Source: Rhodospirillaceae bacterium
Lineage (GTDB): Bacteria; Pseudomonadota; Alphaproteobacteria; GCA-2731375
Length of the DNA: 64,000 nucleotides
Reading direction: 5' to 3'
Assembly: GCA_018701215.1 (NCBI GenBank)
Contig: JABIWH010000018.1
Location: 14,861 to 78,860 of the forward strand
Part shown: in pieces, positions 40,633 through 57,516 of the stretch
Position numbering within the stretch: the stretch's first letter is position 1
Layout: each line of letters starts with the position of its first letter
Made by a program: the position numbers and the translations under genes
Notes under the pieces: generated by a model
What the model was told of the DNA's origin: nothing
Database searches by the model: none
Seen by the model: only the letters and a program-made list of their open reading frames with translations

Positions 40633-41238
40633 TCATTTCTGGCGCTCGATCTCTTCCTCGACGCCCGCTAGGCGGTCCTTGCCAAAGAAAATCTCGTCGC
40701 CGACATAGAAGGTCGGGCTGCCAAAGGTGCCCCGCTTGGCCGAGGCCGTGGTGTTGGCCAGCAATTCATCCTTCACGGATTGCTCCTGAATACCTGCCGC
40801 CATGGCCGCGCCATCCAAGCCATCCCTGTCCAGGGCAGCCTTGATTACCTCGGCGTCATCCATTTTCAGGCCGTCTTCCCACATATGGCGATACACGGCG
40901 TCCACGTATTGTTCGAAACAGCCCTGGCGCTTGGCCCAAATGGCGCCGCGCATGATTTGCACCGTGTTGACGGGGAAGTGCGGGTTGCGCGCATAGGCGG
41001 TCAGGCCGTGTTTGGTGATAAAGCGCTGCATCTCCAACTGGCCGTATTCGTTTTTGTTTTTGATGCCTTGAAATTGTTCCATTGGCGATTTGTTGTTGGT
41101 CAGTTTAAAAACACCCCCAAGCAATACAGGCACATAGTCACAGGCCACGCCCGTACGTTCGACGATGCCGGGGATCAACTTGTGCGCAATGTAGGCATTG
41201 GGGCTGCCAAAATCGAAATGAAATTCAAACGTAGGCAT
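40633..41238 (-). CDS. 2-hydroxychromene-2-carboxylate isomerase / DsbA-like thioredoxin-fold protein
   Basis: FHFDFGSPNAYIAHK N-terminus and FGSPTFYVGDEIFFGKDRL C-terminal motif typical of HCCA isomerase (DsbA-family, kappa-GST-like) proteins. Confidence 0.7.
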   Translation of the reverse strand: MPTFEFHFDFGSPNAYIAHKLIPGIVERTGVACDYVPVLLGGVFKLTNNKSPMEQFQGIKNKNEYGQLEMQRFITKHGLTAYARNPHFPVNTVQIMRGAIWAKRQGCFEQYVDAVYRHMWEDGLKMDDAEVIKAALDRDGLDGAAMAAGIQEQSVKDELLANTTASAKRGTFGSPTFYVGDEIFFGKDRLAGVEEEIERQK

Positions 41239-42768: not shown

Positions 42769-43962
42769 TTAACGCACGCGGTACTCATCGGGTAAGAACA
42801 TCAGGCTGTCCTGTTCCTCGGCAACCGCCATGTGGCATTCGTAGCAGAAGTCCATCTTGGCCGAACCGGCGCCGTTGGTGGTGCCGAATACCTGGCCGTT
42901 GGGCAGCACCATGGTGTAACGCCAGTTGCCGGACACCTTTTTGAAACCAGCCGGCATTTTCTCCATCAGGAACAACGGTCCCGCCGCCAGCTTGCCGTTC
43001 GCCTTGGCAACGAAGCTGTCCTTGGCCAGGATGGCGCCAACGGGCATGCGGCCCGCCGCTTCATACTTGCCGTAGTTGCCGGCGGTGGTGTTGCCGTAGT
43101 TGTTGACGTAGCGGCCGCCATGGGTGTCCGAGACATAGGGTTGCGAGGAATAGTTCTTCCAGTCCTTGTAGTGGCCGGCCACGGTCAGGCCGGATTTGCC
43201 ATAGCCGGCGACAAGATCCTTGACCAGGCAGTCATAGGCCTTGCGTGCCTCGCCCGCCGTCAACTCGGCCACGGCGCCGGCGCCACAGGGATTACACGGG
43301 TTGCAGGGATTGCACGGGCCGCAGCCCTTCTTGGCGGCGCAGGGGTTGCACGGGCTGCAAGCTTTCTTGGCGGCACATGGATTACAGGCGCCGCAGTTTT
43401 TCTTTTTCGCCGCGCAGGGATTACACAATGCCGCCTTGACCAGTCGCGGGATGGCGCATTTTAGCGAGGCCGAGGCAGCGCCCGCACCGCATGGGTTACA
43501 GGGATTACAGGCACCACAGCCTTTTTTCGCGGCGCAGGGGTTGCACGGATTACAGGCTTTCTTGGCAGCGCAGGGATTACAGGCGCCACAGCCTTTTTTC
43601 GCCGCACATGGATTACAGGCACCGCAACCTTTCTTCTTGGCACCGCAAGGGTTGCACGCACCGCAGCCGCGTTTCTTGCTGGCGCACGGGTTGCACGAGG
43701 CGGCTACCTGCATTGGGCTCTGCTGTCTTGGCGCGGCAGGCGCGTTAGGCTGCTGGCCACTAGCCGCGGCTCCCCTGGCGACAGCCGCCGGATTGAGGCC
43801 ATGACTGGCGCCGGACGCCGGTATAGCGGCTCTGGCAAAGGCGACATCGGCCAACGGGATCGCCGCCCCGGCCGTCAAGGCCGCCCCCATAACCACATGC
43901 AACACGGATGATTTGATGATTTTGCTTTTTGTTGATCGCACGATCCAGCCTCCAGCATTCAT
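42769..43962 (-). CDS. Secreted cytochrome P460-family protein (C-terminal CxxCH) with N-terminal Cys-rich C-N-P-C tandem-repeat module
   Basis: Signal peptide (KIIKSSVLHVVMGAALTAGAAIPLADVAFA). About 17 C[NS]PC motifs in 9-12-aa repeats (CNPCAAKKGCGA...), arranged as two blocks each ending CNPCNPCGAGA. C-terminal ~170 aa (..QPYVSDTHGGRYVNNYGN...LFLMEKMP...GNWRYTMVLPNG...MDFCYECHMAV..FLPDEY) follow the cytochrome P460 / c-prime-beta pattern with heme-binding CYECH near the C-terminus. Start chosen at MNAGGW (43962); the ORF extends to 44025. Confidence 0.55.
   Translation of the reverse strand: MNAGGWIVRSTKSKIIKSSVLHVVMGAALTAGAAIPLADVAFARAAIPASGASHGLNPAAVARGAAASGQQPNAPAAPRQQSPMQVAASCNPCASKKRGCGACNPCGAKKKGCGACNPCAAKKGCGACNPCAAKKACNPCNPCAAKKGCGACNPCNPCGAGAASASLKCAIPRLVKAALCNPCAAKKKNCGACNPCAAKKACSPCNPCAAKKGCGPCNPCNPCNPCGAGAVAELTAGEARKAYDCLVKDLVAGYGKSGLTVAGHYKDWKNYSSQPYVSDTHGGRYVNNYGNTTAGNYGKYEAAGRMPVGAILAKDSFVAKANGKLAAGPLFLMEKMPAGFKKVSGNWRYTMVLPNGQVFGTTNGAGSAKMDFCYECHMAVAEEQDSLMFLPDEYRVR
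43255..43700. repeat. Coding tandem repeat (27/36-bp period, higher-order ~220-bp duplication) encoding the CNPC module
   Basis: Recurrent GGATTACA(C/G)GG(G/C)..GCAGCC..TTTCTT(G)GC units are visible in the sequence. They are coding, not a CRISPR array. Confidence 0.7.
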
Positions 43963-44087
43963 TTGATTGTTCCCCAATTTTGCGTGCCCTAAATCTGCAC
44001 CCGCCGCGCGGTGGAAACGAGTCACATCAACTCAAACTTCCGTGAGCGGGTCTGGGAATTTGGTGATGTCGTCTGTAATTTCACAGC

Positions 44088-44990
44088 ATGAGGAAACTTA
44101 TGAAGCGCGGACCGGCCATCGTGATCGCAATATGCGCCGTCATCATCGGGGCCGCAGCTGCCAGTGCGGAGGTTGCCAGGGTGGCGGCGGAAGAGATCCC
44201 GGTGCCGGCAACCGTTGCCGTTCCGGCGGGCGGCTTCATCGCCGGTTCCGATCAGGCCGAGCGTGACGCCGCCTATGACCTGGACCAGGCCGCTTATGGC
44301 CATGACCGTACCCGCCAATGGGGCTGGTATGATGATGAACGGTCCCGGCGACGCCATCATCTCGCCGCCTTTGCCATCACCCGGACCGCCATTACCAACC
44401 GGCAATACGCCGCCTTCATCGCGGCCACCGGGCACCCCGCGCCGGATGTCAAGCCAGAGACCTGGCGCGGCTACCGCCTGATCCATCCCTATCAACGCAC
44501 CCGGCGCCATGCCTGGCGCGGGCAATCGCCGCCGCCGGGGCGGGTCGACCATCCGGTGGTTTTGGTTTCCCACAACGATGCCTTGGCCTATGCCGCATGG
44601 TTAAGCACCGAAAGCGGCAACAGCTGGCGACTGCCAAGCGAACTGGAATGGGAAAAGGCGGCGCGAGGTGTTGGTGGCCGGTACTTTCCCTGGGGTAATG
44701 AATATGACTCCGGGCGCCTGAACAGCCACGATGGCGGTCCTTTCGATACCATGGCGGTGGGCCGGTTCGCGCGCGGCGCCAGTCCGTTTGGCCTGTTGGA
44801 CCCCGCCGGCCAGGTCTTTGAATGGACTGCCACGCCGGCAAACGGAAAAAAGGGCCGGCCGGGCCGCTATCTGGTCAAGGGCGGTTCCTGGGACGACAAG
44901 GGTTGCGGCGTTTGCCGGCCCGCCGCGCGGCATGGCCGGCCCGCCGCCATAAAGCATATCCTGATCGGCTTTCGGCTGATCAGGGAATAG
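44088..44990 (+). CDS. Formylglycine-generating-enzyme family (SUMF1/EgtB/PvdO/NirV-like) protein with N-terminal signal/anchor
   Basis: FGE-sulfatase domain features: RTAITNRQYAAFIAATGHPAP, HPVVLVSHNDALAYAAWL, WRLPSELEWEKAARG, GNEYDSGRLNS, KGGSW. Divergent from the P460-like gene. Confidence 0.65.
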   Translation: MRKLMKRGPAIVIAICAVIIGAAAASAEVARVAAEEIPVPATVAVPAGGFIAGSDQAERDAAYDLDQAAYGHDRTRQWGWYDDERSRRRHHLAAFAITRTAITNRQYAAFIAATGHPAPDVKPETWRGYRLIHPYQRTRRHAWRGQSPPPGRVDHPVVLVSHNDALAYAAWLSTESGNSWRLPSELEWEKAARGVGGRYFPWGNEYDSGRLNSHDGGPFDTMAVGRFARGASPFGLLDPAGQVFEWTATPANGKKGRPGRYLVKGGSWDDKGCGVCRPAARHGRPAAIKHILIGFRLIRE

Positions 44991-45053
44991 GGCAGAATGC
45001 CCATAATGGCTCAACGAATAACGGCTCAACGAAGCCAGATGAGGAATAGTGTC

Positions 45054-45755
45054 ATGAGCTTGTTTGATGAACTATCACGGGAACGGCTGGAGAAAATGGC
45101 CGCCGCCGGCGCGGAGGTTCTGGAATGCTACCGCGTCCTGGAAAAAACCTCCGCCAATATCGTGGGCCAGGTGATCGAGCATGGCGGTACTTTTTACGAA
45201 TGGGACCATTACCCCGAAGGTGATGTCTATGACCACGAAACCTACGGGCAATATTACTATCATTCCCACCGCCCGGAAGCGGGCGAGCACGGCCATTTCC
45301 ACATCTTCATCCGGCGCGAAGGCATCCCCGACCGCATGCAAACGATTCCCTTCGCCGGCACCGGGGAATGGCCCGAAGGCGACGAGATCATCTGCCATCT
45401 GATCGCCATTGCCATGGATCAAAAGGGCTTTCCAACGCATCTGTTCACCACCAACCGCTGGGTTACCGGCGAACACTGGTATGGCGCAGGGGACGTGACC
45501 GAGCTGTTGGACCGCTTTCTTATCGACCACACCTTTCCGTCCTGGGCCGTCAACCGCTGGATCACGGCCATGGTGGCGCTGTACCAGCCGCAGATCGCGC
45601 AATTGCTGATCGAGCGTGACACAGCGGTGCAGGCCTGGTCCGATAGTCACGATGAAGATGTGCTGGAGGACCGGGATTTGGAGCTGACCTCGAAAATCTC
45701 CCTGGACATCCCGCACCAGATCAAGCAAATCAAGAAGGCATTGAAGAAGTTCTAG
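45054..45755 (+). CDS. Conserved hypothetical protein (His/Tyr-rich putative metal-binding core [19 protein letters not shown])
   Basis: 233-aa ORF with a GAGGAA RBS and no recognisable family from sequence. Immediately downstream of the FGE-like gene (6-bp gap), suggesting an operon. Confidence 0.45.
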
Positions 45756-45775: not shown

Positions 45776-46174
45776 ATGGACAAGATCAGCAAGACGGATG
45801 CGGAATGGCGGGCGCAACTCAGCGACGAGGAATTTCATGTCGCCCGCAATAAAGGCACAGAGCGGCCCTTTGGCCCCGGCTATAACAGCTGTCATGACGC
45901 GGGTATTTACACCTGTGTCTGTTGCGGGCTGGAGCTGTTCTCATCCGAGACGAAATTCGATTCTGGCACCGGTTGGCCCAGCTTTCATGCCCCCCTGGTG
46001 CCGGAAAATGTGGCCGAGGAATCGGACAATTCCCTTTTCATGCGGCGTACGGAGGTTATGTGCGCCCGTTGCGATGGCCATCTTGGCCACGTCTTTCCCG
46101 ATGGTCCGGCGCCCACGGGCTTGCGCTATTGCCTGAATTCGGCTTCCTTGCGCCTGGTTGCAGACGATAAATAG
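45776..46174 (+). CDS. msrB: Peptide-methionine (R)-S-oxide reductase
   Basis: SelR/MsrB motifs: two CxxC zinc sites (CVCCGLELF and [12 protein letters not shown]), GWPSF and the catalytic RYCLNSASL. Confidence 0.9.
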
Positions 46175-46186
46175 AAAGAAAATCGT

Positions 46187-46846
46187 ATGAGTACGCAAGG
46201 TAACGCCATCAAGGCCGTATTGTGGGATTTCGGCGGGGTTTTTACCACCTCGCCCTTCGCCGCCTTTGCCCGCTACGAGGACGAGCACGGCCTGCCCAAG
46301 GATTTTATCCGCTCCATCAATGCCACCAACCCGGACGCCAATGCCTGGGCCAAAATGGAACGGAACGAGGTCAGCCACGCGGAATTCGGCGACCTGTTCG
46401 AGGCGGAATCCCGCGCCGCCGGCCATGCGGTCAACGGCAGCGAAATCCTGCCGCTATTGTCGGGCAGCCTGCAGCTGGAAATGGTCACCGCCTTGCGCAT
46501 CGTTGCCAACAGCTACAAGACCGCCTGTCTGACCAACAACATGCGCACGGGCCACGGCCCTTCCATGAGCCGGGACCCGGAGAAAGCGGCGCAGATCGAT
46601 AAGGTCATGGAAATCTTCGAGAAAGTGGTCGAATCCAGCCAGGTAGGCATTCGCAAGCCGGAGCCGAAATTCTATCAGATTGCCTGCGACATGCTGGGCG
46701 TGGAGCCATCCCAAGCGGTCTTCCTTGATGATCTGGGCGTCAACCTGAAGCCGGCCAAGGCCATGGGCATGACCACCATCAAGGTGCTGTCCGCCGGCCA
46801 GGCCATCGACGACCTGGAAGCGGTGCTGGGTATATCCCTGCGTTAG
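46187..46846 (+). CDS. HAD-superfamily hydrolase (subfamily IA, epoxide-hydrolase-N-terminal-like)
   Basis: DFGGVF motif I (DxG), motif II TNN, motif III K...DD (VFLDDLGVNLKPA). Confidence 0.7.
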   Translation: MSTQGNAIKAVLWDFGGVFTTSPFAAFARYEDEHGLPKDFIRSINATNPDANAWAKMERNEVSHAEFGDLFEAESRAAGHAVNGSEILPLLSGSLQLEMVTALRIVANSYKTACLTNNMRTGHGPSMSRDPEKAAQIDKVMEIFEKVVESSQVGIRKPEPKFYQIACDMLGVEPSQAVFLDDLGVNLKPAKAMGMTTIKVLSAGQAIDDLEAVLGISLR

Positions 46847-47841: not shown

Positions 47842-48780
47842 TCAGACTACCAGGTGCCGTCCTGTGCCGTTCGTGTCTCGCAGCCAGGCTTGCTTACCGC
47901 CGCCTCGGCGCAACAGTTCCGCCGCCCTTTCGGGGGGCGATAGATACAGCGCCGTGGACAGGGCGTCGGCGGCGGCCGCGGTGCGGGCCAGGACGGAGAC
48001 GGCGGCATAGTGCCGGGCGCTGCGGCCGGTAACCGGATGCAGCAGATGATGCGGGCCTTCCCCTGCCGCGAAAGGACTGCCCGCGCCGGCGGAGGTGGCG
48101 ACGGCGGCATTCGTAAGATCCAAGGTCGCAACCCTACCCGGCAGCGCGACCGACCAGGGGCGTCCTGGTAGGGCGCGGATCTCGCCCAGGTTCAACAATA
48201 CGTCCGACCAACCCCTGGCGCGGAGCAGATCAGCGACCCGGTCGGTGATATAGCCTTGCGCGATACCGTTCAGAGTCAGGGCCATGCCGGGTTCAAGGTG
48301 GATAGCTTCGGCGCCGATGGCAATGCGCCGGTAGTCGATATGCTGCTGTACCGCCCTGATGGCATCGGGCGAAGGCCCGGCAAGATCGTCGGGATGGTTG
48401 ACGAAATGTTCGGCGTATAGTTGCCACAACGGCTGTATCGAGGGATCGAAGGCGCCCTGGCTCAGATCGCAGTACTGCCGGCAAAGCTGTAACAGGCGGC
48501 GCATGTCGTGGGATGGCGCCGTCAATTGTCCGGCTGCGTTCAATCTATTCAGTGCGGAGCCGGCACGATATAGGCTGAACTCGTTCTCCAAACGGGAAAT
48601 TTCACCCAGGCAGGCCTTGATCGCGGCTTCGGCGGCGGCTTTATCGGGATGATACAGCACGATTTTCGCCTCGGCACCCAAGGCGCCGCCTTGCCATTCA
48701 AAGCGCCGCGGCTGGGCCGCCGCGGCACCAGGCAACAGCGTGGCGGTAGCCGCGATGGCGATAAAGCGGCGCCGGGTCAT
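47842..48780 (-). CDS. nirX: FAD:protein FMN transferase (ApbE family), NirX/NosX-type
   Basis: Tat signal MTRRRFIAIAATATLLPGAAAA. ApbE fold. Located directly downstream of nirI, as in the Paracoccus nirIX operon. Start chosen at 48780 to avoid overlap with nirI. Confidence 0.7.
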   Translation of the reverse strand: MTRRRFIAIAATATLLPGAAAAQPRRFEWQGGALGAEAKIVLYHPDKAAAEAAIKACLGEISRLENEFSLYRAGSALNRLNAAGQLTAPSHDMRRLLQLCRQYCDLSQGAFDPSIQPLWQLYAEHFVNHPDDLAGPSPDAIRAVQQHIDYRRIAIGAEAIHLEPGMALTLNGIAQGYITDRVADLLRARGWSDVLLNLGEIRALPGRPWSVALPGRVATLDLTNAAVATSAGAGSPFAAGEGPHHLLHPVTGRSARHYAAVSVLARTAAAADALSTALYLSPPERAAELLRRGGGKQAWLRDTNGTGRHLVV

Positions 48781-48815
48781 ATTGGGGCTCATGGTGGGGA
48801 CAGCACCCGTACGCA

Positions 48816-51026
48816 TCAGCTTGCCCTTTCCACGTATGCGGCCTGCTTGGCGGCCCGTTCTTCCTGACGCTTGCGCCGGGACACCAACGGCGGACATTTC
48901 CCATTGTCATAGAAATTTGCCTGACAGGCCAGGCAATGAATGCATTCATTGGGATTGATGGAGCCATCGGGATGGATCGCCTGCACGGTACAGTTCACGG
49001 CGCAGAGGCGGCACTCGCGGCCGCACTGAAAGCGCCGCTTCAACCACTCGAACATGCGCAGCCGCGCCGGAATGGCCAATGCCGCGCCCAGGGGACACAG
49101 ATAACGGCAGAAAAACCGCTCTATGAACAGGCCCAGGAACAACAGCCCGCCGACATAGGCCACGAATGGCCAATGGCGCACGAAGTGCATGGAGATCGCG
49201 GTCTTGAACGGCTCCACTTCCGAGCCGGCGATGGCCATGATCGTTGAATGCAGCGAGACCGCGAACAGGCCGAGAAAAATGATGTGCTTGATCGGCCAGA
49301 GGCGTTCGTGCAGCGCGAACGGCACGGTGATTTGCGGAATGCGTAACAGCCGCGCCCCTTCGTTCAGCAATTCCTGTAGGGCGCCAAAGGGGCACAGCCA
49401 GCCGCAGAACACCCCTCGGCCCCAGAACAACAGGGTCACGGCGACATAGCCCCAAAGAATGAAAATCAACGGATCAAGCAGGAAGAATTCCCAGCGGAAA
49501 CCGCTCAAAAGGGATTGCACGAAAGTCAGCACATTTATCACCGACAACTGCGCGCCCGCGTACCAGCCGATCCAGACCAGGGTCACCGTCAAATAGACCA
49601 GCCGGACCGAACGATAGAGCCGCTGCCGCTGTACCAAATTATCCTGAAAAACCAGTATCGCGCTTAGGATCGCCAACAAACCCAACAGCGTCGCGATCCG
49701 GCCCACCCGGTCGCGCCAGTTGCGCAGCCACAGGGCGGGTTCCCCCTGGGTCAGCTGTTGCTGCAAATAAAACAGTACCCGGTCCATCTGATTGTCCGTC
49801 TGCGCCGCCGTTTTTACGTCGCCGCCAAGGCGGTAGCGTGCGGGTAATACATAGGACAACGGAAAATCCAGGTGCACCAGGCCGCCCTGTTTGGTTTCCC
49901 GGCTGACCAGTAGTTCCAGGCGCCATTCGGCCAGGGGATTGAAACCGGTATCGGCGGGCAGGACAAAAACCCCGGTCTCGCGCAGCGACGGCGCGGTGGC
50001 GATTTTCACGGACTCAACAAAATGATAATGCTTTTTCACTAGGCGAATAATCTTGTCGCCCTGCACGATCTGAATGCGGTCGAACAGGCCGGAACGGCGA
50101 TACCGCGTCCCCTTGTAGGAATAGATCCCGTTGCCGGCGATGAATATGGCCTGATCCTTTGGGCTCATGTCCCGCAAAAGGCGATTGAAGGCCTGCGGGC
50201 CCAACAGATTCTGGCCAACCCGGGGCGGCGTAATCAGGGCCGTGTAGAGTTCGGAATACAGCTCCTCGGGCGCTTGATCGCCGGGAAATTCCGCACCCGG
50301 AATGGCGACCCTGTCGCGGTAGGCCTGTTCGATATTACCGTGATTAAGGATCAGGTGGGCAATGGAGCCATCGGCGCGCAGTTCCTGCCAATCAGCGGGT
50401 TCATAAGTCTCGCGGTCAAGGCGAACCTTGGCCTGCACCGCCGCCAGCAAACCGCGGCTACGCGCCACGGTTCGGGCCGCCCGGACCACCGAGTCAGCGA
50501 TCACCGAGCTGGAAATGGTGGCGCCCGAAATCGCATCAGGTAGCGCGCCGAGGCGGTTGGCGACTTGGCGCACTTGCCCTGGTTGGTGGATATCGACACC
50601 GGCAAAACCCGCGACAAAATCCCGCAATGCCTGATCAGGAATGCCGATTACCAGAATTGGTTCATTGTGGCTGCGCAACAGCGCGCCGGTGATCAGGCCC
50701 TTATTGGTAATGCCCACCATGATATCGATAGGCTTACCGGAAAACCCAACCGATCCGACAACATCCTGAGTTGAAAAAATATAACCAATGCGGGCGCCGC
50801 CCTTGAAGACCGAGGCCGCCAGAGGCTTGCCAGCCAGGGAACCGGCCCGATCGGCGCCGGGAAACACCTGGGCCAGGGTTTCGGGACCAATGCGCTCACC
50901 CTGCTTGGCCCAGCTGGGCCCGGCAAACAAGATCAGAGGCGATATCAGAGCCAATATCAGAGCCAAATGCAGCGCTCGTGCGTCAATCGTGGAGCGCGCC
51001 TTGCTGAATATCATGCTGAATATCAT
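48816..51026 (-). CDS. nirI: NosR/NirI-family membrane-bound FMN-binding iron-sulfur regulator of nitrite reductase expression
   Basis: 736 aa. Periplasmic FMN-binding domain, 6 TM helices, two C-terminal ferredoxin-type cysteine clusters (CGWLCPFGALQE, CRYLCPLGA, CGRECRLCAVNC, CIHCLACQ). Divergent from nirS. Confidence 0.85.
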   Translation of the reverse strand: MIFSMIFSKARSTIDARALHLALILALISPLILFAGPSWAKQGERIGPETLAQVFPGADRAGSLAGKPLAASVFKGGARIGYIFSTQDVVGSVGFSGKPIDIMVGITNKGLITGALLRSHNEPILVIGIPDQALRDFVAGFAGVDIHQPGQVRQVANRLGALPDAISGATISSSVIADSVVRAARTVARSRGLLAAVQAKVRLDRETYEPADWQELRADGSIAHLILNHGNIEQAYRDRVAIPGAEFPGDQAPEELYSELYTALITPPRVGQNLLGPQAFNRLLRDMSPKDQAIFIAGNGIYSYKGTRYRRSGLFDRIQIVQGDKIIRLVKKHYHFVESVKIATAPSLRETGVFVLPADTGFNPLAEWRLELLVSRETKQGGLVHLDFPLSYVLPARYRLGGDVKTAAQTDNQMDRVLFYLQQQLTQGEPALWLRNWRDRVGRIATLLGLLAILSAILVFQDNLVQRQRLYRSVRLVYLTVTLVWIGWYAGAQLSVINVLTFVQSLLSGFRWEFFLLDPLIFILWGYVAVTLLFWGRGVFCGWLCPFGALQELLNEGARLLRIPQITVPFALHERLWPIKHIIFLGLFAVSLHSTIMAIAGSEVEPFKTAISMHFVRHWPFVAYVGGLLFLGLFIERFFCRYLCPLGAALAIPARLRMFEWLKRRFQCGRECRLCAVNCTVQAIHPDGSINPNECIHCLACQANFYDNGKCPPLVSRRKRQEERAAKQAAYVERAS

Positions 51027-51171
51027 GCGATACAGGGCCTAGTCTTGCAGCGGCATGGTTGGGCCATGGTCAACCCCATGGCCGTCCCTGCCGTGATGCC
51101 TTTCCGACATGGAGAACCCCGCTCACTCAATTTCGCACCATAAAGGATGCCGGCATTTTTCTTACCCGAAA

Positions 51172-51185
51172 ATGACCACGGTCAA
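51172..51185. promoter_or_regulatory. NNR/FNR-type box (ATGAC-CACG-GTCAA) in the nirI-nirS divergent promoter region
   Basis: 13/14 match to TTGAC-N4-GTCAA, centred ~67 bp upstream of the nirS ATG. Confidence 0.45.
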
Positions 51186-51212
51186 GGATTGTTAACTTCG
51201 TATCGCTAATGA

Positions 51213-52997
<1,785 letters not shown>

Positions 52998-53023
52998 GAC
53001 GGACGTCTAATCCAATGTGGCGT

Positions 53024-53051
53024 GGGATCGAAAAGTTAACCTTTTCGATCC
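53024..53051 (+). terminator. Perfect hairpin GGGATCGAAAAG-TTAA-CTTTTCGATCCC after nirS (terminator/attenuator-like, no U-tract)
   Basis: 12-bp perfect inverted repeat 27 bp after the nirS stop and before nirE. Confidence 0.4.
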
Positions 53052-53119
53052 CGCCGTCCGCTACAATCTATGTAGTCGAATTTTACCTAGACGACGCGTG
53101 ACCGCGGGGGACGCTCTAG

Positions 53120-53923
53120 ATGACCAAAGCGAGTACAGTATTTCTTGTCGGCGCCGGGCCAGGGGATCCGGAGTTGTTGACGATGAAGGCGCACCGATTG
53201 CTGCAGGCCGCCGAGGTGGTGGTTTATGACCGGTTGGTTTCGGCCGAAATTCTGGCCCTGATCCCGGCGGGCGCGACCCTGATCAGCGTTGGCAAACAGC
53301 CGCATAACCATCCCATTCCGCAGCCCGAGATCAACCAGTTGCTGGTCCGCCTGGCCAGGGCCGGCCGCAATGTCGTCCGCCTGAAGGGCGGTGACCCTTA
53401 TGTTTTTGGCCGCGGTTCGGAAGAAGCCATAACCTTGGTCGAAAATAACGTGCCATTCGAAGTCGTACCGGGCATTACCTCGGCCTCGGCCTGCTCGGCC
53501 TCCGTCGGCATGCCCTTGACCCATCGCGGCCTGGCCACCGGCGTTCGTTATTTGACCGGCCATTGCCGGGAAGACAGCGAGCTGGATTTTGACTGGCAGG
53601 GCCTGGCCGATCCATCGACCACCCTGGTGATCTATATGGGCATGGCCAATGTGGAACAAATCACCGAGAACTTGATCAAACACGGCGCCGACCCGAAATT
53701 GCCCGCCGCCGCCATCAACAATGGCAGCACGCCGGCGCAACGGCACGTCGTATCCAGCTTGGAAAAACTGGCCGGCGATGCCAAGGCCGCTGAATTCAAT
53801 GGACCGGTATTGTTCGTCGTCGGTCAAGTCGTGGCCCTGCATGCCATCCTGGGCGTGCAAGTGGATGCCAATCAAGATCAGGCTCAAGACGATGAACAGC
53901 CGAATTCCGCCGTGGGCAGCTAG
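53120..53923 (+). CDS. nirE: Uroporphyrinogen-III C-methyltransferase (SUMT) of the heme-d1 pathway
   Basis: TP methylase starting VFLVGAGPGDPELLTMKA. CobA/CysG-C-like, 267 aa. First gene after nirS. Confidence 0.9.
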   Translation: MTKASTVFLVGAGPGDPELLTMKAHRLLQAAEVVVYDRLVSAEILALIPAGATLISVGKQPHNHPIPQPEINQLLVRLARAGRNVVRLKGGDPYVFGRGSEEAITLVENNVPFEVVPGITSASACSASVGMPLTHRGLATGVRYLTGHCREDSELDFDWQGLADPSTTLVIYMGMANVEQITENLIKHGADPKLPAAAINNGSTPAQRHVVSSLEKLAGDAKAAEFNGPVLFVVGQVVALHAILGVQVDANQDQAQDDEQPNSAVGS

Positions 53924-53987
53924 AGCAATTCCGATCCAATGTGGATCGCCCAAGAGCCCTGAGCGATTCTAAGTGCCAAGATTGTCG

Positions 53988-54374
53988 ATGGGAAAAATTG
54001 CTCTATTCTTAAGAATCAGAGCATTTCCTATTCGGAAATGCTTTAGGGCCTGCCTGACCGCTGCCTTGTTTGCGACGTCGATCACTCCAGTTTGCAGCGA
54101 AGAAAGTATTTCGACGGCGCGGCAGACGGAATTGCTGTATCTCTTGCAACAGGATTGCGGCTCCTGCCATGGCCTGACCCTCAAGGGCGGCCTGGGCACG
54201 CCGCTGTTGCCGGAAAATTTAGCGGACAAGCCCGATGATGCCCTGGTTGAGATAATCATGCAAGGGCTGCCGGGTACGCCCATGCCGCCCTGGCGCTTTC
54301 TGCTCAAGGAACAGGAAGCCGCGTTCCTGGTACGGGCCATGAAGACGGGCCAGACACTGAAAATCGAGCAATGA
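53988..54374 (+). CDS. nirC: Cytochrome c55X
   Basis: Signal peptide plus the single heme-c site CGSCHG, then GLPGTPMPPW. ~128 aa. Position between nirE and nirF. Confidence 0.7.
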   Translation: MGKIALFLRIRAFPIRKCFRACLTAALFATSITPVCSEESISTARQTELLYLLQQDCGSCHGLTLKGGLGTPLLPENLADKPDDALVEIIMQGLPGTPMPPWRFLLKEQEAAFLVRAMKTGQTLKIEQ

Positions 54375-54384
54375 AAGTCGAAAA

Positions 54385-55587
54385 ATGAGGTCTTTAGGGA
54401 AAATTTCCACCTTTCTGGCAACGGCCGCTCTGCTCATCTCGGCCATGGCCAACGCCCAAGCTGATGATGGTTTGAAACTGCGCGGCACCGGCGATCTGGG
54501 CCTGGTGATTGAACGCGCCCATGGCAGCATCCAAATTATTGACACGACCCAGCGCGCGGCCCTGGGCCGGGTCAAGGGCCTGGGCGATCTCAGCCATGCC
54601 TCCGCCGTCTATTCCAGGGATGGGCGCTATGCCTATATCTTTGGCCGCGACGGCGGCTTGAGCAAGGTCGATATCCTGCAACGGCGCATCGCCAAACGTG
54701 TCGTGCAATCGGGCAACAGCATCGGCGGCGCGATTTCCCAGGACGGCAGCCTGGTGGCCGTCTCCAATTACAAGCCGGGCGGGGTCAAGGTGTTTGATGC
54801 GGCGACGTTGGAATTGGTGGCCGACATTCCGGCCCAGGCCAGTGACGGCAGCGGCCTCTCCAAGGTGGTTGGCCTGGCCGATGCGCCGGGGCAACGCTTT
54901 ATCTTCTCGCTTTATAACGCCGGCGAGATTTGGATCGCTGATTTTTCAGACCGCGGCAACGTTAAGCTGACCAAATATACTGATATTGGCGAGCTGCCCT
55001 ATGACGGCCTGATCACCGATGATGGCCGCTATTACATCGCCGGCCTGTTCGGCGAGGACGGCATGGCAATGCTGGATCTGTGGCAGCCCGAAAAAGGCGT
55101 GCGCCGTATTCTGGACGGCTATGGCCGGGGCGAGGAGAAGCTGCCGGTCTACAAGATGCCCCATCTGGAAGGCTGGGCCCGGGCCGGTGACGTGATTTTT
55201 CTGCCCGCCGTGGGCCGCCATGAAGTCCTGATGGTCGCGCCCGGCAGCTGGAAAGAGGTTGGGCGCATTGCCGTCCATGGCCAGCCGATCTTTGCCGTGG
55301 CCCGGCCCGACGGCCGCCAGGTCTGGGTCAATTTCGCCCATCCGCTGAACGACACGGTGCAGGTTATCGACGTGCCCAGCCGCAAGATCGTGCACGAATT
55401 CAAGCCGGGCAAGGCAGTGCTGCATCTGGAGTTCACGCCCAGGGGCGAGCAGGTCTGGATTTCCGTGCGCGATGCCAACCGGGTCGATGTCTATGACACC
55501 GAAAGTTTCGCGCGGCTGCAAACCCTGCCGGCGCAAAAACCATCGGGAATTTTTCTCACCGCCCGGGCCAATCGGATCGGGTTATAG
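54385..55587 (+). CDS. nirF: Heme d1 biosynthesis protein NirF (cd1-like beta-propeller, dihydro-heme d1 dehydrogenase)
   Basis: Signal peptide and a 400-aa WD/propeller protein homologous to the NirS d1 domain. Confidence 0.85.
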   Translation: MRSLGKISTFLATAALLISAMANAQADDGLKLRGTGDLGLVIERAHGSIQIIDTTQRAALGRVKGLGDLSHASAVYSRDGRYAYIFGRDGGLSKVDILQRRIAKRVVQSGNSIGGAISQDGSLVAVSNYKPGGVKVFDAATLELVADIPAQASDGSGLSKVVGLADAPGQRFIFSLYNAGEIWIADFSDRGNVKLTKYTDIGELPYDGLITDDGRYYIAGLFGEDGMAMLDLWQPEKGVRRILDGYGRGEEKLPVYKMPHLEGWARAGDVIFLPAVGRHEVLMVAPGSWKEVGRIAVHGQPIFAVARPDGRQVWVNFAHPLNDTVQVIDVPSRKIVHEFKPGKAVLHLEFTPRGEQVWISVRDANRVDVYDTESFARLQTLPAQKPSGIFLTARANRIGL

Positions 55588-57021: not shown

Positions 57022-57516
57022 ATGAGCGAAAGCAGCGATCTCCTGGACGAAACCGACCGGCGCATCATCGTCGCCACCCAGGGCGGCCTGCCGCTGGTGG
57101 CGGAACCCTATGGGGCGGTGGCGGATGAGTTGGGCCTGGATGTTGATGATGTCATGGCGCGCATGCAACGGATGCTGGACGGCGGCCTGATCCGCCGCAT
57201 CGGCGCCGTGCCGAACCATTACGCCCTGGGCTATCGCGCCAACGGCATGTCGGTCTGGGATGTCCCGGATGAAGACATCTCGGAGATCGGGAAAATGGTG
57301 GGGGATTTGGATTTCGTCTCGCACTGCTATCATCGGCCCCGGCATTTGCCGTACTGGAGCTATAACCTGTTTGCCATGGTGCATGGCCGGGACCGGGATG
57401 AAGTATCGGACAAAGTTGAACGGATCGCAAAGTTGATGGGGATCAAGGACCGCAGGCACGAGATTTTATACTCTCACCGCATCCTGAAAAAGACGGGTTT
57501 GCGTTTCACGGCCTGA
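57022..57516 (+). CDS. nirH: Siroheme decarboxylase subunit NirH
   Basis: Paralog of NirD/L/G. Start MSESSDLL. Confidence 0.8.
   Translation: MSESSDLLDETDRRIIVATQGGLPLVAEPYGAVADELGLDVDDVMARMQRMLDGGLIRRIGAVPNHYALGYRANGMSVWDVPDEDISEIGKMVGDLDFVSHCYHRPRHLPYWSYNLFAMVHGRDRDEVSDKVERIAKLMGIKDRRHEILYSHRILKKTGLRFTA

Follow-up and report, generated by a model that had tools for sequence, protein, structure and literature searches.

Cytochromes P460 are defined by a covalent cross-link between a lysine and the haem, which in the enzyme of Nitrosomonas europaea (NeP460) joins Lys70 to the haem gamma-meso carbon, whereas the related cytochromes c'-beta carry phenylalanine or methionine at the cross-link position (PMC11928373, Table 2). 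The oxidation of hydroxylamine (NH2OH) requires in addition a precisely placed distal carboxylate (Glu96, as in NeP460, or Asp102), and the haem potentials of P460s are very low, about -400 mV (PMC11928373). The gene described here lies on a 64,000 nt stretch (the window) of a Rhodospirillaceae assembly (GCA_018701215.1, contig JABIWH010000018.1, positions 14,861 to 78,860). With high confidence, its predicted product is a Sec-exported periplasmic c-type haem protein that combines the P460/c'-beta fold, the haem attachment motif C-Y-E-C-H and an invariant lysine at the cross-link position with a disordered N-terminal arm rich in cysteine and lysine. The arm is built from repeats of the motif N-P-C, and proteins that carry it are called NPC proteins below.

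The distance to the described members of the superfamily is considerable. Compared with the P460s of N. europaea and Methylococcus capsulatus (Protein Data Bank (PDB) entries 2je3 and 6hiu), the identity is just 17-22%, the 9-residue segment that holds the catalytic Glu96 of NeP460 is missing, and both an N-terminal helix bearing a cysteine (Cys245) and the cysteine-repeat arm of 137 aa are additional. The hosts differ as well, being marine heterotrophic or denitrifying Alphaproteobacteria here and nitrifiers or methanotrophs in the known cases. From the cytochromes c'-beta (7ead and 8brk of Thermus thermophilus, 7s5o of N. europaea, 6hih of M. capsulatus) the protein is set apart by its invariant lysine, which takes the place of their phenylalanine or methionine (PMC11928373).

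The haem domain and its cysteine-repeat arm

A first-pass annotation of the window had placed the gene in one minus-strand open reading frame (ORF), 42769..43962, beginning with the ATG at 43962. The single minus-strand ORF stands (in the ORF list it reaches a GTG at 44025), and residue numbers throughout refer to the 397-aa frame that begins at this ATG. As a start codon, however, this ATG, which adds seven residues, is not conserved in 11 orthologous loci, and translation most likely starts from a conserved GTG at 43941. In an alignment of the upstream region, a GGAGG is found 7 nt before the GTG or ATG equivalent to position 43941, and this ribosome-binding site and start are kept in the 11 loci; P0001, a near-identical database protein from another sample, begins at the same GTG and comprises 390 aa. 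The N-terminal pattern of the predicted signal peptide recurs in the aligned homologues, and a twin-arginine motif is absent from it.

That the C-terminal part follows the P460/c'-beta pattern and carries the C-Y-E-C-H site, as first proposed, was borne out by the profile comparison which had been suggested as a check: Pfam Cytochrome_P460 (PF16694) matches aa 264-383 with its positions 3-120 of 125 at 30.2 bits (gathering score 27, E 6.8e-7). An AlphaFold2 (AF2) model of aa 227-397, built from 112 homologues, has a mean predicted local distance difference test (pLDDT) score of 93.3 and is predicted to adopt a mainly beta-sheet fold, as in the solved superfamily members. Foldseek returned seven significant matches to it, all with probability 1.0, which are M. 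capsulatus P460, the c'-beta proteins of T. thermophilus and N. europaea, and N. europaea P460. PDB sequence searches with a full-length profile and with a domain-only profile retrieved no P460 entry, and the relationship to the solved P460s, which shows up solely in Pfam, in the fold comparison and in profile-profile alignment, is therefore remote. Haem attachment is predicted at the single CXXCH motif (CYECH) near the C-terminus, whose His would be the proximal ligand.

For the comparison of individual residues, NeP460 was represented by a sequence with 99% identity to 'cytochrome P460 family protein [Nitrosomonas europaea]' in the database. A profile-profile alignment (hhalign) of 43 family sequences with 20 canonical P460s gave a probability of 75% and an E value of 2.5e-5, and it pairs Lys314 with Lys70, CYECH with CATCH and Lys335 with the invariant Lys100; Lys314 also pairs with Lys70 when the alignment is made against the single NeP460 sequence. 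Lys314, Lys335, His281, Trp347 and the CxxCH are invariant in arm-bearing and arm-less groups alike. Because a lysine is invariant at the haem cross-link position, the aligned sequences place the domain on the P460 side of the superfamily and not with the c'-beta proteins, as it has the lysine that defines the former and lacks the phenylalanine or methionine of the latter. Cys245 behaves differently, being a cysteine in 80 of 82 arm-bearing members as against 2 of 19 arm-less paralogues or fragments. This covariation, the sole evidence of its kind, suggests that the arm is functionally coupled to the haem domain and is not an independent appendage.

The repeat module had been described as some 180 aa in two blocks, with about 17 copies of the motif and about 55 cysteines. 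Two blocks there are, and the 16 overlapping CxPC motifs that we count (15 of them C[NS]PC, 14 CNPC) come close to the copy number given; the length is 137 aa, though, and the cysteines had been overcounted, with 35 in the protein and 32 of these inside the module. In block 1 the units read C-N-P-C-A-A-K-K-(G/A)-C-G-A or C-N-P-C-N-P-C-A-A-K-K. The metallothionein-like composition noticed at the outset was confirmed: the module is 23% cysteine and rich in lysine, and aromatic residues and histidine are both absent. Among all ORFs of at least 40 aa in the six frames of the window, this is the only one with two or more 'NPC'.

Across 112 homologues the Cys, Asn and Pro columns of the module are near-invariant. 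The underlying DNA repeats in tandem every 18, 36 and 72 nt (Tandem Repeats Finder, TRF), but only imperfectly, matching at 73-80% for the 36-nt period, and P0001, with 99% identity over 390 aa, has an identical repeat module. Pairwise Nei-Gojobori estimates from three orthologues put the ratio of nonsynonymous to synonymous substitution rates (dN/dS) at ~0.03 in the repeats, compared with 0.10-0.13 in the haem domain and 0.15-0.2 in the leader, estimates which the alignment of the repeats by protein similarity can bias. When copy number was compared among complete-looking relatives, as had been advised, it ranged from 8 to 57 NPC units, with 19-92 cysteines per protein. The first-pass annotation had considered a hypervariable region, which is apt for the number of copies and not for their sequence: the tract varies in length and yet, on these estimates, appears to be under strong purifying selection, stronger than that on the haem domain. 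The most expanded examples have 57 NPC units and 92 cysteines (a 582-aa ORF in L077) or 41 units and 65 cysteines (L099:6383-7732).

In a full-length AF2 model the repeats reach pLDDT values of only 30-48, and they are predicted to be intrinsically disordered. The sole ordered piece of the arm is the spacer between the two blocks, a predicted strand and helix (pLDDT 75-91), whose motif C-x-x-P-R-L occurs in 62 of 82 repeat-bearing relatives. We assign this spacer to the arm because the same motif is found in a protein that combines LysM with NPC repeats and has no P460 domain. Two long ORFs run antisense over the repeat region (42832-43464 and 43241-43804, both on the plus strand), with translations consisting of G-L-Q or G-L-H repeats. 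We rejected them as genes, since they are mirror frames of the repeat DNA, which is also why such ORFs recur in every related locus.

Spread of the arm and its gene partners

A full-length search returned at least 886 protein clusters at E <=1e-3, with the repeats present in 119 of the 120 listed, and most of the listed members are unnamed, 'hypothetical' or 'cytochrome P460 family protein'. When one genome per species was scanned, 475 species genomes proved to contain relatives, and the 80 best-scoring loci come mostly from uncultured marine Alphaproteobacteria (Rhodospirillaceae, Kiloniellaceae, Sneathiellales, Minwuia and Anderseniella), with three cultured Sneathiella species among these 80 loci. 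In the literature, searches for a P460 fused to a cysteine-rich repeat, for DUF6969 (see below), CNPC and NPCAAK, and for periplasmic metallothioneins found no paper, and the terms fusion, extension, repeat and cysteine-rich are all absent from a 2025 review of P460 and c'-beta proteins (PMC11928373). A P460 with such a repeat had seemed unfamiliar, and so it is; it is not rare, and the architecture is common yet undescribed in the literature searched.

The arm and the haem domain can be followed separately. With the haem domain alone, an exhaustive HMMER search of 1.84 billion cluster representatives gave 561 matches at E <=1e-3 and 106 at E <=1e-30. Only 22 of the 121 complete-looking top matches (50%-identity representatives) have the repeat, most of the others being repeat-less proteins of ~200-245 aa; in this subfamily of haem domains the arm is therefore an addition that most members do without. 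In Kiloniellaceae loci, and in one locus of a Sneathiella metagenome-assembled genome, an arm-less P460 paralogue stands in tandem with the arm-bearing gene (examples in Table 1).

The repeat region alone (aa 88-231) was also searched, as had been recommended, and its 449 matches include mini-proteins and other haem proteins. Of 119 listed matches that were analysed, 79 are not longer than 135 aa and 18 contain a CxxCH; the former have about four C-N-P-C-N-P-C-A-A-K-K units after a signal peptide, and represent secreted mini-proteins of ~90 aa. The Pfam partners of the repeat among the matches listed are SoxA-TsdA_cyt-c, CCP_MauG, LysM and Cytochrome_P460. Over all NPC proteins the constant unit is N-P-C-A-A-K, here densified to C-N-P-C-A-A-K-K-G-C-G-A, and the density of cysteines differs: the sparsest arms have one in six residues (A-K-N-P-C-A-A-K...), the densest, such as that of our protein, three in eleven or twelve. 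A fixed spacing from cysteine to cysteine is not kept family-wide, but N-P-C is.

SoxA/TsdA-like monohaem cytochromes c have N-P-C-A-A-K repeats on both sides of the haem domain (L101:1366-2346, L109:2801-3649, L119:5092-5886, L134:1753-2502, L146:140-991 and others), and they are usually encoded together with a small NPC protein and DUF6969. The haems of SoxA and TsdA are ligated by His and Cys, and an additional conserved cysteine in these relatives (D-E-M-V-Q-F-C, ~39 residues past the CxxCH) may serve as such a His/Cys haem ligand. Judged from its sequence contexts, we regard the NPC arm as a portable accessory module. A further small monohaem cytochrome c, of c2 type, was seen inside the 8-kb flank in 14 related loci.

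The gene partners point in the same direction, in that the genetic link belongs to the NPC arm and not to P460. Neighbours were counted within 8 kb in 84 related loci, of which the genome scan supplied the 80 best-scoring and contig look-ups the other 4. A gene for a secreted protein of the sulfatase-modifying, formylglycine-generating enzyme (FGE) fold occurs in 42 of these P460/NPC loci, and one for a DUF6969 protein, which the first-pass annotation did not mention, in 41. The two are found in at least three placements, namely both upstream and divergent, FGE-like upstream with DUF6969 downstream, and both on the same strand; that they are kept through such rearrangement argues for a functional linkage.

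DUF6969 is, on this evidence of gene context, the strongest partner of the arm, and the FGE-like protein is less tightly linked. DUF6969 is encoded within 2 kb of five out of seven NPC proteins which had been chosen by repeat similarity alone. It directly follows each of the mini-proteins P0157, P0202 and P0235, P0135 lies one gene downstream of it, and the NPC-flanked cytochrome P0159 adjoins FGE-like, DUF6969 and DUF302 genes. At locus L085 a 140-aa P460, a 91-aa NPC protein and DUF6969 are separate adjacent genes, with an FGE fragment and SCO1/SenC nearby, an arrangement that we read as the split version of the P460-NPC fusion. Other NPC proteins are accompanied by thiol-related genes: P0132 is preceded by Redoxin and DsbD_N genes, and genes for Redoxin and an FGE-like protein stand near that of a Nitrospinota-like NPC protein whose core domain is a different one. 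The FGE-like neighbour had been taken for a part of the nir context of this window; it follows the repeat module instead, as it adjoins NPC proteins with other cores, the Nitrospinota-like one included.

In the reciprocal direction, a search with a DUF6969 profile gave 80 metagenomic loci of which ~48 hold an ORF with at least three NPC, and ~20 of 27 DUF6969 loci without an NPC or other cysteine-dense ORF are contigs shorter than 3 kb. Further neighbours at the DUF6969 loci were FGE-like (~33, by tblastn), DUF302 (18), Sulf_transp (7) and thioredoxin (6). Defined as a secreted protein with at least three N-P-C and a DUF6969 gene within a few kb, the NPC-repeat/DUF6969 gene set is present in the window. 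For DUF6969 itself, Pfam searched up to E 10 gave only DUF6969, and PDB searches gave nothing credible; its His-rich motifs alone would allow the guess of a cupin or thiol-dioxygenase-like protein.

Two other observations concern DUF6969 loci. Immediately after DUF6969, 20 of 85 loci encode an unannotated secreted protein of ~160 aa (e.g. L101:4922-5404); it has the motifs V-G-C-Q-F, D-C-x-x-I-N, K-P-G-x-Y and C-P-L-N-P-T-P-D-Y and no Pfam match. In a gammaproteobacterial locus (L173:1609-2819), an extracytoplasmic function (ECF) sigma factor and a DUF3379 anti-sigma-like gene stand just upstream of DUF6969 and the NPC gene, a pair that may hint at regulation by envelope stress.

Possible roles of the arm

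Of the explanations considered for the arm, we favour that of a multi-thiol partner, a flexible arm that would serve the haem site either by exchanging electrons with it or by capturing intermediates covalently. This role, inferred from the architecture and the gene neighbourhood, is put forward tentatively; to the best explanation taken as a whole, identity plus mechanism, we assign a probability of about 40%. It is preferred because the partner domains that can be named are usually small-molecule-reactive haem c domains of two unrelated folds, because the N-P-C context is conserved rather than a chelating spacing, because Cys245 co-varies with the arm, and because the recurrent neighbours are related to thiols or sulfur (FGE fold, Redoxin, DsbD_N, thioredoxin, Sulf_transp, DUF302 and MsrB). 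The FGE fold is that of a cysteine-modifying enzyme family.

The cysteines of the arm, relayed via Cys245, would give or take electrons by thiol/disulfide cycling. Alternatively, the arm would capture reactive haem-bound intermediates as covalent cysteine adducts, which would be an NO+ or HNO equivalent in the case of the P460 haem and sulfane sulfur or thiosulfate in that of the SoxA-like relatives. It would fall to the FGE-like protein, DUF6969 and the neighbours of thioredoxin fold or DsbD type to set up, restore or recycle the state of these cysteines. The nearby nir genes suggest NO or NH2OH as the local substrate, a link that is specific to this clade. A working analogy is the SoxXA-SoxY system, likewise a haem c enzyme that acts with a flexible peptide bearing a reactive cysteine, and the sister proteins do have a SoxA/TsdA-type domain between the same repeats. 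In contrast to that system, there is no SoxY fold, GGCGG motif or nearby sox gene here, and the arm is in cis, multivalent and disordered; its role as a covalent carrier is our proposal.

Several points weigh against this reading. Glu96 of NeP460 lies in a 9-residue segment that has no counterpart in our protein and was left unaligned by hhalign, so that the proton-relay carboxylate is not placed; a near-invariant Glu334 is found beside the invariant Lys335, in the neighbouring strand. At about -400 mV, a P460 haem would not obviously favour electron donation from thiols. DUF6969 appears to be cytoplasmic while the arm is secreted, and neither FGE-like nor DUF6969 is encoded within 8 kb in about half of the P460/NPC loci, among them those examined from Sneathiella and Kiloniellaceae. 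These frequencies are estimates, as each scan contributed its 80 top-scoring loci and the flanking DNA is often short. Finally, the composition of cysteine and lysine without aromatic residues, the C-G-x-C-x-x-C units, which resemble metallothioneins and the zinc-binding CXXC finger, and the SCO1/SenC gene in one related locus (L085) are shared ground with the main rival.

According to this rival, which we consider somewhat unlikely, the arm is a periplasmic metallothionein-like module that binds Cu(I), Zn(II), Cd(II) or Hg(II) in thiolate clusters and acts as a buffer, store or metallochaperone; the stand-alone mini-proteins would then be free periplasmic metallothioneins, and the arm would be tethered to haem proteins or merely co-exported with them. 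Besides the composition, disorder in the apo state is typical of metallothioneins, and the C-G-A-C-N-P-C units fit the CGxCxxC signature of zinc-binding CXXC fingers. Pfam zf-CXXC (PF02008) reaches 15.9 bits here (gathering score 26.5) and, above threshold, 28.7 bits in the homologue P0018, and in a PDB profile search the repeat region matched only CXXC fingers, at E 0.15-1.1. The threshold is exceeded only by some repeat-richer homologues, with no full-domain match, and what recurs is the local C-G-x-C-x-x-C without the DNA-binding context or the eight-Cys two-Zn topology of the eukaryotic fingers (TET1/TET3, CFP1), so that the resemblance is likely compositional. Metallothionein family models of Pfam and NCBIfam did not match the protein. 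A link to copper could be seen in SCO1/SenC at L085 and in the cysteine pair kept by the FGE-like neighbour, as canonical FGEs are Cu(I) enzymes; a recurrent metal transporter, efflux or sensor gene was not found in the ~170 loci examined.

Known metallothioneins and copper storage proteins (SmtA, MymT, Csp1) share with the arm the high content of cysteine and lysine, the lack of aromatic residues and the disorder without ligand. They differ in that our protein is Sec-secreted and haem-fused, and N-P-C-A-A-K is not a known metallothionein pattern; Csp proteins are, moreover, cysteine-lined helical bundles and not disordered repeats. Against metal binding we also count that N-P-C is conserved throughout the family, down to one cysteine per six residues, with no fixed chelating spacing, that the partner domains are catalytic haem domains and not metal enzymes, and that the covariation of Cys245 suggests coupling to the haem domain.

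A disulfide electron sink or relay is closer to the multi-thiol partner that we favour, and as a separate explanation it is quite improbable. In this reading, which the first-pass annotation had named a haem-independent electron relay, the CxxC motifs would cycle between dithiol and disulfide, connecting the haem with Dsb or thioredoxin systems and thus with the quinone pool, without covalent adducts of the substrate. The 16 CxPC motifs would suit such a role, as would the Redoxin, DsbD_N and thioredoxin neighbours in some related loci and the DSBA-like gene in the window and its close relatives. Conservation of this last gene, however, is limited to the closest clade (76-93% identity in 14 loci, plus three weak matches at ~32%), and many members have isolated single cysteines in their units (NPCAAK) and no CxxC. 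The relay overlaps with the favoured explanation to the extent that sequence alone cannot separate the two.

A structural role is far less probable still. In this case the FGE-like protein would turn arm cysteines into formylglycine aldehydes that condense with lysines, and the tail so cross-linked would anchor haem enzymes in a matrix of the periplasm or cell surface. The A-A-K-K context is like that of elastin cross-linking domains, a fusion with the cell-wall-binding LysM exists, and the FGE-fold neighbour recurs with NPC proteins across phyla; an FGE-fold gene stands beside a gene for a C-x-P-rich protein much as in the pairing of FGE with sulfatase. C-N-P-C fits the first four positions of the FGE substrate motif C-x-P-x-R; the repeats continue as C-N-P-C-A, however, with no Arg at +4, and the spacer sequence C-A-I-P-R, a C-x-x-P-R, is out of register by one residue. 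The neighbour itself, for which no NCBIfam equivalog model was reached, has ToxD, CalU17, pFGE and FGE as closest solved relatives and is nearer to ToxD/CalU17 than to the true FGEs. Right after its GGSW follows a C-G-V-C pair, both cysteines being at least 80% conserved in 43 orthologues, at the place of the copper-binding pair of true FGEs, which is CxxxxC and not CxxC; the protein has a signal peptide. Half of the loci have no FGE-like gene nearby, and cross-linking would not require near-invariance of every cysteine. We also looked for a correlation of the spacer motif with the FGE-like neighbour, and none was clean, since C-x-x-P-R occurs in 34 loci with FGE and 28 without; the C-x-x-P-S variants of Sneathiella type are mostly without FGE nearby (9 vs 1).

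An assembly error or a functionless, slippage-prone expansion, the artefact against which the first-pass annotation had cautioned, would account for the tandem DNA repeats and for copy numbers that differ among species, but it is effectively refuted by the imperfection of these repeats, the identical module in an independent sample, the low dN/dS, motif columns near-invariant in more than 100 homologues, relatives in 475 species and the module's own conserved gene partners.

In its widest form, the reading of the arm as a multi-thiol partner would describe a whole periplasmic cysteine-arm system, undescribed and widespread, and in this form we consider it unlikely. It would consist of the NPC proteins, DUF6969 and the secreted FGE-fold protein (elsewhere DUF302, the ~160-aa protein and thioredoxin-fold proteins), and its disordered arms would serve haem c enzymes of at least two unrelated folds, P460 and SoxA/TsdA-like, as sacrificial reductants or covalent carriers whose cysteines are enzymatically altered or reset by DUF6969 and the FGE-like protein. 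In the present genome it would couple a lysine-cross-linked P460 haem to thiols, for example by S-nitrosation or capture of HNO during denitrification.

The locus and its wider meaning

The features of the window are collected in Table 1. The FGE-like, DUF6969, MsrB and HAD genes form an operon-like row in one direction, with the same order in three related loci (L001, L003 and L004), and MsrB and HAD are co-conserved in this clade only. Past the HAD gene follow genes for GST, ApbE, a NirI/NosR-like protein, nirS, a nirE-like methylase and nirF.

Table 1. Positions of the features of the P460/NPC gene and its surroundings in the window, with examples of tandem paralogues from related loci
Feature	Position	Strand	Remarks
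P460/NPC-repeat protein, coding sequence	42769..43941	-	390 aa + stop from the conserved GTG
Sec-type signal peptide (predicted), aa 8-43	43834..43941	-	Basic n-region, hydrophobic core VLHVVMGAALTAGAAIPLA, cleavage-like A-F-A; read from sequence
Ala/Pro/Gly/Gln-rich linker, aa 44-89	43696..43833	-	Little conserved (alignment); AF2 pLDDT 29-37; dN/dS 0.15-0.2
NPC-repeat block 1, aa 90-158	43489..43695	-	8 CxPC motifs; TRF period 36 nt; near-invariant C/N/P columns; pLDDT <50
Conserved spacer G-A-G-A-A-S-A-S-L-K-C-A-I-P-R-L-V-K-A-A-L, aa 159-179	43426..43488	-	Cys169; motif C-x-x-P-R-L
NPC-repeat block 2, aa 180-226	43285..43425	-	8 CxPC motifs; ends C-N-P-C-N-P-C-N-P-C
Cytochrome P460/c'-beta-fold haem domain, aa 227-397	42772..43284	-	171 aa; Pfam, AF2, Foldseek
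Cys245, first helix of haem domain	43228..43230	-	Co-varies with repeat arm
Lys314, haem cross-link lysine position	43021..43023	-	Pairs with NeP460 Lys70; no exception in sets of 112 and 101 sequences
Haem c attachment motif C-Y-E-C-H, aa 373-377	42832..42846	-	C..CH invariant in 101 family members; aligns with CATCH of N. europaea P460
Conserved ~30-nt upstream block, candidate promoter/operator	44017..44046	-	Sense strand CTCACGGAAGTTTGAGTTGATGTGACTCGT, also given as TCACGGAAGTTTGAG..GATGTGACTCGT
DSBA-like gene	40633-41238		Window and close relatives
Secreted FGE-sulfatase-fold protein	44088..44990	+	Divergent; Pfam PF03781, E 1.4e-42
DUF6969 protein, His-rich	44997..45755	+	Without signal peptide; Pfam PF22308, E 7.9e-82
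MsrB	45776-46174	+	Pfam, NCBIfam; 21/84 loci
HAD-family phosphatase	46187-46846	+	Pfam, NCBIfam; 20/84 loci
ApbE	47842-48897	-	Denitrification cluster
NirI/NosR-like FMN-bind + 4Fe-4S membrane protein	48816-51026	-	Denitrification cluster
cd1 nitrite reductase nirS	51246-52997	+	Denitrification cluster
nirE-like uroporphyrin methylase	53120-53923	+	Denitrification cluster
nirF-like protein	54385-55587	+	Denitrification cluster
Tandem repeat-less paralogues, examples in related loci	L027:7211-7855, L051:7049-7693, L049:9024-9734		Similar cases in other loci

The denitrification cluster extends over 47842-55587, with nirS ~7.3 kb away from the P460/NPC gene. A role in the handling of N-oxides had been derived from this neighbourhood. 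The nir locus is real, but the link is not a conserved one, as homologues of nirS, nirI or apbE lie within 8 kb in just 5 of the 84 loci, all of them close relatives, and no FNR/NnrR-type box was found within 2 mismatches in the intergenic upstream region (43940-44090). The nir context thus appears to be lineage-specific and not a property of the family, and an N-oxide role is plausible for this genome. Elsewhere in the window, downstream of the nir genes, TTGATGGGGATCAA at 57433-57446 is a perfect palindrome of FNR/Dnr type, the only match without mismatch.

Within the conserved upstream block, 11 orthologous loci keep the core TCAC.GAAGTTTGA unchanged amid intergenic DNA that has diverged on either side. 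A promoter of ECF-sigma type (GGAAG-N17-CGTT) was considered for this block and dropped, since across the family the generic motif occurs in 6 of 78 sense and in 3 of 78 antisense sequences.

P460s have been studied almost only in nitrifiers and methanotrophs, as enzymes that convert NH2OH to N2O or NO. The existence of a large, uncharacterised branch with the lysine, among Alphaproteobacteria that are marine heterotrophs or live in oxygen-minimum zones, bears on the question of where marine N2O and NO chemistry may take place, and for a specialist on P460 the combination of a lysine-bearing branch with a cysteine-repeat arm in marine heterotrophs is unexpected. The arm is also common to sulfur-type cytochromes and to abundant secreted mini-proteins, and it provides a first functional handle on DUF6969, a family without a described role. 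The gene represents an undescribed variant of a known haem-protein family, and a new periplasmic system may be organised around N-P-C arms and DUF6969. Should the arm bind metals, it would be the first periplasmic metallothionein family to our knowledge; should it partner the haem, covalently or in redox reactions, this would be a new way of wiring periplasmic haem enzymes.

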